From NCBI RefSeq assembly GCF_013315695.1, contig NZ_CP054353.1: a DNA stretch of 64,000 nt; one strand, written 5' to 3'. Positions 17,847 through 20,800 of this stretch are shown one piece after another. The stretch's first letter is position 1, and each line of letters starts with the position of its first letter. The position numbers are program-made. This stretch comes from Escherichia coli. GTDB taxonomy: Bacteria > Pseudomonadota > Gammaproteobacteria > Enterobacterales > Enterobacteriaceae.

Positions 17847-20800
17847 TCAGCTATTTAAGATAGGCACGAACCAGTTCAATAGTGTCGTCAACGGATTGGC
17901 TGACTTCGCGGCTGTAGCAGTCATTTCGGTCAAACGTTTCCCGGATATGGCTTTCAAGCACTTCTGCCATCAGCCCGTTAGCCGCGCCCCGAACGGCAGC
18001 GATCTGTTGGAGTATGGCACGGCATTCGGCATCACTCTCCAGCGACCGTTCCAGAGCATCAATCTGCCCCCGAATACGACGAACTCGAGTAAGGACCTTT
18101 TTCTTCTCTTCCGGAGTACTGGGCATTTCGCACCTCATCATCTGCACGCAATATACTATAGGGGGGTATGCTATATGTCAATGCATACTCCCCTATAGTA
18201 TATAACACTGGAGAATAAAATTTATCCGGTGAATGTAGTCGGATAACAAAAAGGAAAGAGGGGCCTAATCGACAGGGAAGGCCGCCCCGGATAGCGGGCG
18301 GCAGAAGGAATTAGAATTTCCAGGTCAGATGGGCTGCAAGTTGCAGACCGTTATAATCATCGGTTGGGGTGTCGTACCACACTTTACCTGCCGTCAGCCC
18401 GAGATTAAGTTGCTCAGTCAGCGGTTGAATACGTTGCAAACTGACGCTCTTCATGCTGCCGTAGCGTGTTTCTGGCGTCCAGTCATAGGTGTAAGCGCCT
18501 GTTCCGCGGCTTAGCCATAGTTGCGTATAACCAGTGCCGCGCGGGTCATTCAGACGCACGGAAATCATATTGCTGTAACTACCACCTGCATCGCTGGAGT
18601 CATAATGGGTATAGCGGTAGCTGGAGATCACCGGGCCAGTATAGAGTGATACGCCGCCTTGCCAGGCATCGACTTCGACATCATCGTAATATTTAGTGTA
18701 GCGATAACCGGTCGTGAAAAGCGTTTTTGGCAACAGGGCCAGGTTAATATCCTGACGAAAATCCTGGCGGGCAAAGACCGGCGTATTATCCGCAAAGGCA
18801 ATACCCGTTCGGGTTGTCAGCCAGTTATTCCATTTGTACCAGACTGCACCCTGGCCGCGAGTGGCATTGAAATGTTCAGTTTCATAATCACGACGCCCCT
18901 GGGAAAGATTAAAAAGCAGCGTTGCGTTTTCAACTTTCGCCACCAGTTCAGCATACGCTAAATTACGGTTGCCATGATCGCCAGAATAATCGGTAAAATC
19001 GTAGCCCGCGGTAATGGAAGTTAACCCGGCATAAGCGGGCAATGTGCTAAAAATTGCTGCCGCTAATAACGTCCGTTTTATCATTTTAATCTCCTGTACG
19101 GATAAGTTCTTGTCGGAGTGAATAAGTTCCGGTAGGTAAATTACGTTCTACAATCACGCGCGGGCCAAGTTGCGTGTTCGGGGAAATAATTCGCCCAGGC
19201 AAAATAATAACTTGTACGCCAAGGCGTGAACGCTGTCCGATATAACAACCTAATTTATCGCATCCGGTAGCGATAATTCCCTCTGGAGTTCGAACAGACA
19301 CGGGCTGTTCATCCAGACGATGATTACTGGTACGTACTTGTGCGCCCAAATATGCCTGGTTTGCGACTACCGAGTCGGCAATAAAACATTGCGGACCAAT
19401 CGTTGCTTCCGCTTCAATAACCGCATTTTTAATTTCGGTGGCGAAACCAATTTTTACGCCATTGCTGATTATTGTGCCAGGACGAATAAACGCATAATTA
19501 CCTATCAGGCAGTTTGCGCCAATCACTACCGGACCCTGAATAACGGCACCGTGACAAATACGGGTATTCGCGCCGATAACAACTTCACCTGCAGTTTCAT
19601 CAATAATTACCTGGTCTGCAATCTGAATATTTTTCTCTTTAACATTAAGCTTCAGAAAGTTTTTCAGTTCCTGTGACAGAAGGTTGGGAATAAGCGGTTG
19701 ACGCTTCCACCAGTGCGGAATAGCGGGTGGGTTTGTCGCGCTGAGGTTCGCGTCCAGTAAAAAAGGCAATAAGTCCATAAATAATCCAGATGGCATAAGC
19801 TAATAATACATACACAACGGAAAGCGGCGCTAAAGGCACCAACAACCAGCAACGATGAAACCAGGCGCTAAAAGCACCAATAACACAAACTACGCCGACC
19901 CAGATAAGCGGAAACATTGCCAACACCACACTATGCGGCCCGGTGGTGATGAATTCATTAAACCAGGTAGTGAGATAAATCCCAACGCCATAAAGCACAA
20001 CCAACAGCATAGGAAATATACTGAAGATACCGAAGCGGCTAAATAAAAGTCTTTTATGCAGGCGCATACAGACCGCGTAGCCCACAATCCAACGCCGCCA
20101 GCGACGCCATTCCTCACGCGGGCTGTTGCATTCCTGTGGGTATACGATGCAGCGATTCGCCTGCCGAATACGATAGCCGTTTGCCACCAATGTCCAGGTG
20201 AGATCAAGGTCTTCGACTTTAGTACGATCAGAGAAACCGAACTTACGCAATACATCAGTACGGAACATCCCGCAGGCACCGCTGATAATAAACGGTGCGC
20301 CGCCCAGGAGCTGCTGTAGCGTGCGCTTCATAACAATCATCGGCAACTTTACGGTCGCGCGGATGTGCGGTAACAGACCCGCGCCTTTCAACGCAGTAGA
20401 GGGAATGCCGCCTACGGCATCAGCACCGCGCTCTATTTCTGCCAGCATATAGCCCATTCCGTCTTGATCGGGCGGAACATAGGTGTCGGCATCACTTAAA
20501 AAAACCTGGTCGCAGGTGGCGTAATTGAGGCCATTCATCAGCGCACCACCTTTACCGGTATTTTTTTGCGTGACGGCAATAAAGCGGTCGCCCCATTTGC
20601 GTTTGACTTCCGCCATGACCGCTTCGGTATTGTCCGTGGAGCCGTCGTTAACGCAAATTACCCGGCAAAAATAAGGGTTACGCAGCAGATTATCCAGTGA
20701 CTGCGCCAGACACGGGCCTTCGTTATAAGCAGGTATAATGGCGTCAATACAGCCTTTTTTTTGGCTGGGCTTACGCCTTAACGTACTCAGGAACCATAGC

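Follow-up and report, generated by a model that had tools for sequence, protein, structure and literature searches.

The large inverted repeat upstream of frmR in the stretch of Escherichia coli DNA analysed here (64,000 nucleotides of contig NZ_CP054353.1, referred to as the window) is almost certainly the operator-promoter of frmRAB, with two FrmR sites that bracket the -35 hexamer, the -10 hexamer being overlapped by the proximal site. Rather than a single operator, the palindrome comprises two separate 17-bp operators in inverted orientation, each with its own ATAC/GTAT dyad. Through this element E. coli controls its main operon for glutathione-dependent formaldehyde detoxification, and the widely used formaldehyde biosensor Pfrm has it as its core. 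It has already been described in the literature and its confirmation brings nothing conceptually new; what we show here is its anatomy, the way it overlaps the promoter, which gene encodes the repressor and how the motif is conserved across phylogeny.

The genes at the locus follow the order yaiO-frmR-frmA-frmB, all on the minus strand, between 15.7 and 19.1 kb of the window. frmR (17851-18126, RefSeq annotation), which starts with an ATG at 18126, encodes a 91-aa repressor of the CsoR/RcnR family (PF02583, 82.9 bits), and yaiO (18311-19084) lies immediately upstream on the same strand. The two regulated genes, each supported by an open reading frame, a domain match and annotation (RefSeq in the case of frmA), are frmA (16707-17816), encoding S-(hydroxymethyl)glutathione dehydrogenase, and frmB (15782-16615), encoding S-formylglutathione hydrolase. 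The frmR product scored 188.1 bits against the NCBIfam FrmR equivalog NF008464 (cut-off 133) and just 68.6 bits against the RcnR model (cut-off 138), and its translation contains Pro2, Cys35 and His60, the residues linked to formaldehyde sensing (Denby et al., PMC5146963), which places it within the FrmR group. Furthermore, two complete E. coli chromosomes matched a 1-kb query at the locus with 100% identity and thousands of others with 95-99%, and these chromosomal matches were all annotated as yaiO / frmR / frmA.

The inverted repeat occupies positions 18151-18203 and is centred on 18177, 25-77 bp upstream of the frmR ATG. Its 21-nt arms, 18151-18171 (ATATACTATAGGGGGGTATGC) and 18183-18203 (GCATACTCCCCTATAGTATAT), are complementary at 20 of 21 positions (95% in the repeat search) and are separated by an 11-nt spacer. 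The outer 14 nt pair perfectly (ATATACTATAGGGG / CCCCTATAGTATAT), the sole mismatch sets 18165 G against 18189 T, and inward of it the arms read GTATGC/GCATAC. Arms of 21 nt with at most one mismatch occur once in the 64-kb window when spacers of 0-40 are allowed, as do perfect arms of 14 nt, for which the analytic chance expectations per window are 3.8e-5 and 0.0098, respectively. Folded as single-stranded DNA, the palindrome reaches -16.3 kcal/mol compared to -4.8 +/- 1.7 for shuffled sequences (z = -6.9), with none of 200 shuffles folding as well. The first-pass annotation had described a perfect 12-bp repeat at 18151-18206, built around an inner gtatgc...gcatac palindrome. The repeat is real, but its length had been understated and bases 18204-18206 fall outside it; the inner palindrome is present, but is no more than the GTAT/ATAC half-sites that the two operators turn towards the centre, together with two bases that are not conserved.

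A number of other palindromes were observed in the window. The yaiO-frmR spacer holds a hairpin at 18222-18246 (TTATCCG-N11-CGGATAA) and a GC-rich one at 18276-18300 (GGCCGCCC-N8-GGGCGGC), just past the yaiO stop, which is plausible as a T-poor yaiO terminator, with no call at this place from the terminator scan. The second-best palindrome of the window, with perfect arms of 12-13 nt at 5064-5098, is the lac operator O1 region, flanked by lacZ (1979-5053) and lacI (5176-6267) on the minus strand. Its allele here, TGTGTGAAATTGTGAGCGGATAACAATTTCACACA, is common to 442 records as an exact 81-nt match, O157:H7 included; in K-12 this region would read TGTGTGG..., the lac promoter presumably also differing from that of the window at several bases. 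Lastly, a perfect 12-nt inverted repeat (TAATGCCCGTCAAGGATTTGACGGGCATTA) lies at 30039-30068, between a 969-aa ORF (27091-30000) and a 222-aa ORF (30041-30709), and may be a terminator, since TTTAGATT comes next on the minus strand.

Scanning positions 17800-18500 for promoters returned a single sigma-70-like match, on the minus strand and within the palindrome, with 10 of 12 bases agreeing with the consensus; the repeat had correctly been placed over the frmRAB promoter by the first-pass annotation. The -35 hexamer is a full TTGACA (6/6; 18176-18181) and is invariant in nine Escherichia sequences, and the -10 hexamer is TAGTAT (18153-18158) at a spacing of 17 nt, TATAGT at 18155-18160 being a possible alternative. 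By these coordinates, the 'loop' of the palindrome holds the -35 hexamer, and its frmR-proximal arm the -10 hexamer. A Shine-Dalgarno region, TGAGGTG, is found at 18131-18137 on the minus strand, 4-10 nt upstream of the frmR ATG.

The strict motif ATAC-N9-GTAT has two matches in the whole window (shuffle mean 0.8), and both lie in the palindrome. The distal one, ATAC-TATAGGGGA-GTAT (18185-18201, minus strand), stops 3 bp short of the -35 hexamer on its upstream side; the proximal one, ATAC-CCCCCTATA-GTAT (18153-18169, minus strand), takes in the entire -10 hexamer and the 11 nt of promoter spacer that precede it. Read on the frmR strand, the arrangement is ATAT-[ATAC TATAGGGGA GTAT]-GCA-TTGACA-TATAGC-[ATAC CCCCCTATA GTAT]-AT, so the inverted repeat is made up of both FrmR sites and 2 bases beyond them at either end. 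From centre to centre (18193 and 18161), the sites are separated by 32 bp, or about three helical turns. Each 17-bp unit has its own G/C tract, a C6 run in the proximal site if the C of ATAC is counted and G4-A-G in the distal site, where other E. coli have G6. Reportedly, the abstract of Rohlhill et al. 2017 gives two 19-bp sites, one upstream of the -35 and one overlapping the -10; this layout is the one found here. Both units have the G/C-tract dyad form that defines a type-I operator of the CsoR/RcnR (DUF156) family (definition from PMC5146963), and they show what is expected of an operator, that is, overlap with a promoter, whose -35 is bracketed and whose -10 is contained, and a CsoR/RcnR-family gene downstream.

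This anatomy agrees with published work, from which the binding of FrmR to the promoter fragment, its release by formaldehyde and the transplantability of its sites are taken. Denby et al. 2016 (Sci Rep 6:38879, PMC5146963) drew tandem type-I sites at Pfrm (their Fig. 6a), with two ATAC-N9-GTAT sites in a large inverted repeat whose centre is ~29 bp upstream of the predicted start. In the same study, E. coli FrmR bound a Pfrm PCR fragment with a Kd of ~220 nM and did not bind PydhY, and formaldehyde released FrmR. Osman et al. 2016 (JBC 291:19502, PMC5016687) aligned the E. coli and Salmonella frm promoters and marked the same G/C tracts and T/A-rich repeats (Fig. 2D); mutation of one T/A-rich flank of the Salmonella site abolished FrmR binding, and two FrmR tetramers were found per Salmonella operator (PMC4528141). 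In 2024, 'ATACN9GTAT' FrmR sites were put upstream of the -35 and into the spacer of the constitutive promoter J23100, resulting in complete repression by FrmR and ~40-fold induction, and repression was lost from a truncated native promoter in which both sites remained (PMC11127321). PMC8601185 credits Rohlhill et al. 2017 with the identification of repressor sites in Pfrm via sort-seq.

Genomic SELEX with RNA polymerase holoenzymes placed a peak in the frmR/yaiO spacer (K-12 coordinate 379186), with an intensity of 50.8 for RpoS and a weak one of 3.0 for RpoH (PMC5493296). This peak suggests that the polymerase binds the promoter without accessory factors and that sigma-S may possibly use it too. 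Our literature search found no base-resolution footprint of E. coli FrmR (DNase or hydroxyl-radical), and no ChIP-exo or SELEX for it, so the occupancy of each site rests on mutational and comparative evidence. The FrmR operator proposed by the first-pass annotation is supported by the identity of the locus, by the G/C tracts with their T/A-rich repeats and by the published operator at this very repeat, and the proposed fit to the CsoR/RcnR family holds both in the type-I form of the sites and in the conservation of the motif upstream of orthologous regulators.

Within Escherichia, conservation follows the two operators. In an alignment of nine sequences, the ATAC, GTAT and TATA parts, the TTGACA and the leader were invariant, and apart from rare SNPs the variation was located between or outside the two 17-mers, the distal site being nearly invariant. 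The bases that join the two sites differ (K-12 AGAATAC, ETEC4079 GTATGT, E. albertii GTATAT), and other changes concern the length of the G tract (G7 in strain 536) and the sequence upstream of ~18229. Thus, the GC pair of the inner palindrome is not conserved and the 17-mers are, since K-12, ETEC4079 and E. albertii break the pair and keep the operators.

The sole arm mismatch is due to a rare SNP, a T at 18189 (plus strand) where nearly all E. coli have C, which changes the distal G6 into GGGGAG. Of 5,426 complete E. coli genomes, 2 carry the T, namely NZ_OZ547117.1 and NZ_LR898874.1 (strain MSB1_4I), which are also the only two with 100% identity to the window over 1 kb. At least 5,339 genomes carry the C, with which the arms are perfect as long as the inner GC has been preserved. 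To judge by sequence comparison, the T is probably neutral, because the rare allele equals the broad consensus ATACTCCCCTATAGTAT.

Similarity to the window stops at 18218-18263 in ~1,140 E. coli genomes. In O157:H7 (strain 7409) it ends at 18218, and the gene upstream of frmR is fbpC, encoding a ferric ABC transporter, and not yaiO. The conserved promoter-operator module therefore ends ~15 bp past the palindrome, where similarity breaks and the upstream gene differs. REP-like sequence is present at this junction in some Escherichia (L001, L003 and SE15), and the stretch beside the operator looks like a variable or insertion-prone junction. A 73-mer query had matched 4,298 genomes, as if ~1,100 E. 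coli genomes were devoid of the promoter; we rejected this reading as a megablast word-size artefact, given that K-12-type alleles leave no exact 28-mer and that a 42-mer with the common allele matches 5,339 genomes.

To follow the motif beyond Escherichia, we used the genomic loci of FrmR homologues (52-99% identical), 80 in total, from alpha-, beta- and gamma-proteobacteria, ranging from Escherichia to Brucella, Lysobacter, Pseudorhodoferax and Deefgea. Of the 80 loci, 65 had at least one strict ATAC-N9-GTAT no more than 150 nt upstream of the gene. Altogether, these upstream regions (12.0 kb) held 83 sites and the rest of the loci (242 kb) held 3, a ~560-fold enrichment. When one mismatch or a core of N8-10 was allowed, the motif was found in all loci but two (L030 and L055). 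The consensus of 41 distinct sites is ATACTCCnCTnnAGTATA (ATAC-TCCnCTnnA-GTAT-A), with an asymmetric core in which a C run stands beside ATAC and (T)ATA beside GTAT; the C run reads towards the gene in 56 of 66 loci. Being conserved over three proteobacterial classes, alpha, beta and gamma, the 17-bp motif provides a usable consensus for regulon prediction.

The two sites differ in their distribution. The proximal site is near-universal and always lies on or beside the -10/-35, as in a Rhizobiales example, TTGAC-ATACTCCCCCATAGTAT. The distal site is limited to Enterobacterales, Aeromonas and Deefgea, at a spacing of 32-35 bp, and is missing in many homologous promoters, those of Tatumella, Pasteurellaceae, Rhizobiales and Burkholderiales among them. 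It is therefore auxiliary and not generally essential to the mechanism. As the site is asymmetric, two copies of it placed head to head yield the big palindrome as a by-product.

Further observations were made among these loci. The frmR promoter regions of Klebsiella grimontii, Citrobacter freundii and Maribrevibacterium (L006, L007 and L011) are near-identical, as are those of an Edwardsiella anguillarum plasmid, Enterobacter and Morganella (L009, L010 and L018). Near-identical promoters in unrelated hosts indicate that frmR(A) modules move horizontally together with a double operator of their own, whose cores are GTGGAG/CTCCAC. The distal site of the L006 type has an N10 core, and a further strict site is present in L006 and L007, 853 nt downstream of where frmR starts. 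In seven Xanthomonadales loci (L030, L035, L037, L038, L052, L065 and L077), the motif ATACTCCCCCCCACTAT(G) directly adjoins the start codon derived from tblastn or overlaps with it, which suggests a leaderless transcript or a very short leader, or a start that has been mis-set.

Could the inverted arrangement have a role beyond that of two adjacent operators? That the whole 53-bp palindrome is one operator unit, clamped at both arms by a tetramer or wrapped by an oligomer, seems very unlikely to us: most promoters of FrmR homologues have the proximal 17-mer alone, the two sites of Erwinia endophytica stand in direct and not inverted orientation, the joining bases (the GC and the loop) vary in Escherichia whereas the 17-mers do not, and individual ATACN9GTAT sites work when transplanted (PMC11127321). 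In its favour are the recurrence of the inverted 32-35 bp arrangement in Enterobacterales and Aeromonas, the loss of repression in the truncated native promoter (PMC11127321) and the possibility, raised by Denby et al. for centres ~31 bp apart, that a single tetramer contacts the tandem sites with its two faces (PMC5146963). A cooperative or clamping mode over both sites is possible. Somewhat less improbable, and still unlikely, is that the inverted pairing is functional in itself, with a tetramer or a pair of tetramers clamping the arms and looping or wrapping the -35 region, or with a cruciform forming under supercoiling; if so, basal frmRAB expression would be measurably altered by the SNP at 18189, which brings the distal site to the pan-proteobacterial consensus ATACTCCCCTATAGTAT.

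We also considered that the repeat might act as a nucleic-acid structure, either as an RNA hairpin that terminates or stabilises yaiO read-through or as a protein-free DNA cruciform that modulates the promoter. The hairpin is indeed very stable (DNA -16.3 kcal/mol, z = -6.9), it also appears in the RNA fold of the yaiO-frmR spacer, and yaiO is directly upstream on the same strand. Against this, the stem has an AT-rich base and is followed by UGCGUGC and not by a U tract, unlike an intrinsic terminator, a terminator scan of 17800-18500 gave no terminator-like site, and the palindrome is retained where fbpC replaces yaiO, for which reasons a yaiO terminator was rejected. A known RNA family was rejected as well, since no Rfam covariance model matched at gathering score on either strand of the whole window. 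In addition, the palindrome lies upstream of the predicted frmR start and is hence not in the frmR mRNA. Apparent co-variation of the arms is seen as GTGGAG/CTCCAC in the Edwardsiella plasmid, Enterobacter and Morganella, and over seven independent lineages arms matched their own partner at 7.43 of 9 positions versus 6.88 of 9 for partners from other lineages (permutation p = 0.07). This test was not significant and thus provides no evidence of selection for pairing as such, and concerted evolution of the arms, by quasipalindrome correction or hairpin selection, was rejected on the same value. Taken together, we regard a structural role of this kind as extremely unlikely. Least probable of all, with a chance close to nil, is a mobile or dispersed repeat remnant (REP/BIME, MITE or IS end) or its terminal inverted repeats. 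REP-like sequences and the variable junction, where homology breaks at ~18218-18263 in ~1,140 genomes, do lie upstream, but the 73-mer has 4,298 places in 4,298 genomes and the 42-mer 5,341 places in 5,339 genomes, the window holds no second copy, and the element is always in front of frmR. One copy per genome is not what a repeat in many copies would give, and this candidate was rejected.

For the two-operator promoter that we favour, the following course of events would be expected. When formaldehyde is lacking, FrmR tetramers would sit on the sites, one per site in the published models, and the bound FrmR would keep RNA polymerase from the -35 and -10 of a strong sigma-70 promoter. Steric occlusion would then be the mode of repression, with the individual sites presumably occupied at this stoichiometry, and repression would cover frmR itself, frmA and frmB. 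Formaldehyde would cross-link Pro2 and Cys35 in FrmR, the DNA-binding surface would be lost, FrmR would leave the DNA and the operon would be transcribed. The two sites alone may be insufficient in the native context, because repression was lost in the truncated native promoter (PMC11127321), and flanking DNA or wrapping may contribute to native repression by analogy with what has been proposed for RcnR.

The closest known system is the E. coli Pfrm operator pair of Denby and Osman 2016, which is the same element at the same locus, K-12 aligning base for base. Compared to the published Pfrm, the distal G tract of the window has a private G-to-A change (18189 T on the plus strand), and the window keeps the inner GC pair that K-12 has lost (AGAATAC). 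The Salmonella FrmR operator frmRAPro (Osman et al. 2015, 2016) shares with it a C6 tract and T/A-rich inverted repeat flanks, which are required for binding, and takes two tetramers per DNA (PMC5016687, PMC4528141). It differs in having a single G/C tract on a 33-bp probe; the two FrmR proteins are just 52% identical, and the operator-promoter sequences of E. coli and Salmonella are 'distinct' according to the authors (PMC5016687). The E. coli RcnR operators in the rcnR-rcnA intergenic region, TACT-G6-N-AGTA (Iwig & Chivers 2009, cited in PMC5146963), are likewise type-I sites in which short AT-rich inverted repeats enclose a G/C tract, and there too two sites are found, with a tetramer on each. 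Indeed, an FrmR site read as TACY-N7-AGTA is in the frame of the RcnR TACT-N7-AGTA. The FrmR sites, unlike those of RcnR, are inverted to each other, as the asymmetry of the core (C run, then TATA) reveals, and they lie 32 bp apart from centre to centre versus 19 bp for RcnR (PMC5146963). The two repressors also differ in effector, which is formaldehyde for FrmR and Ni/Co for RcnR.
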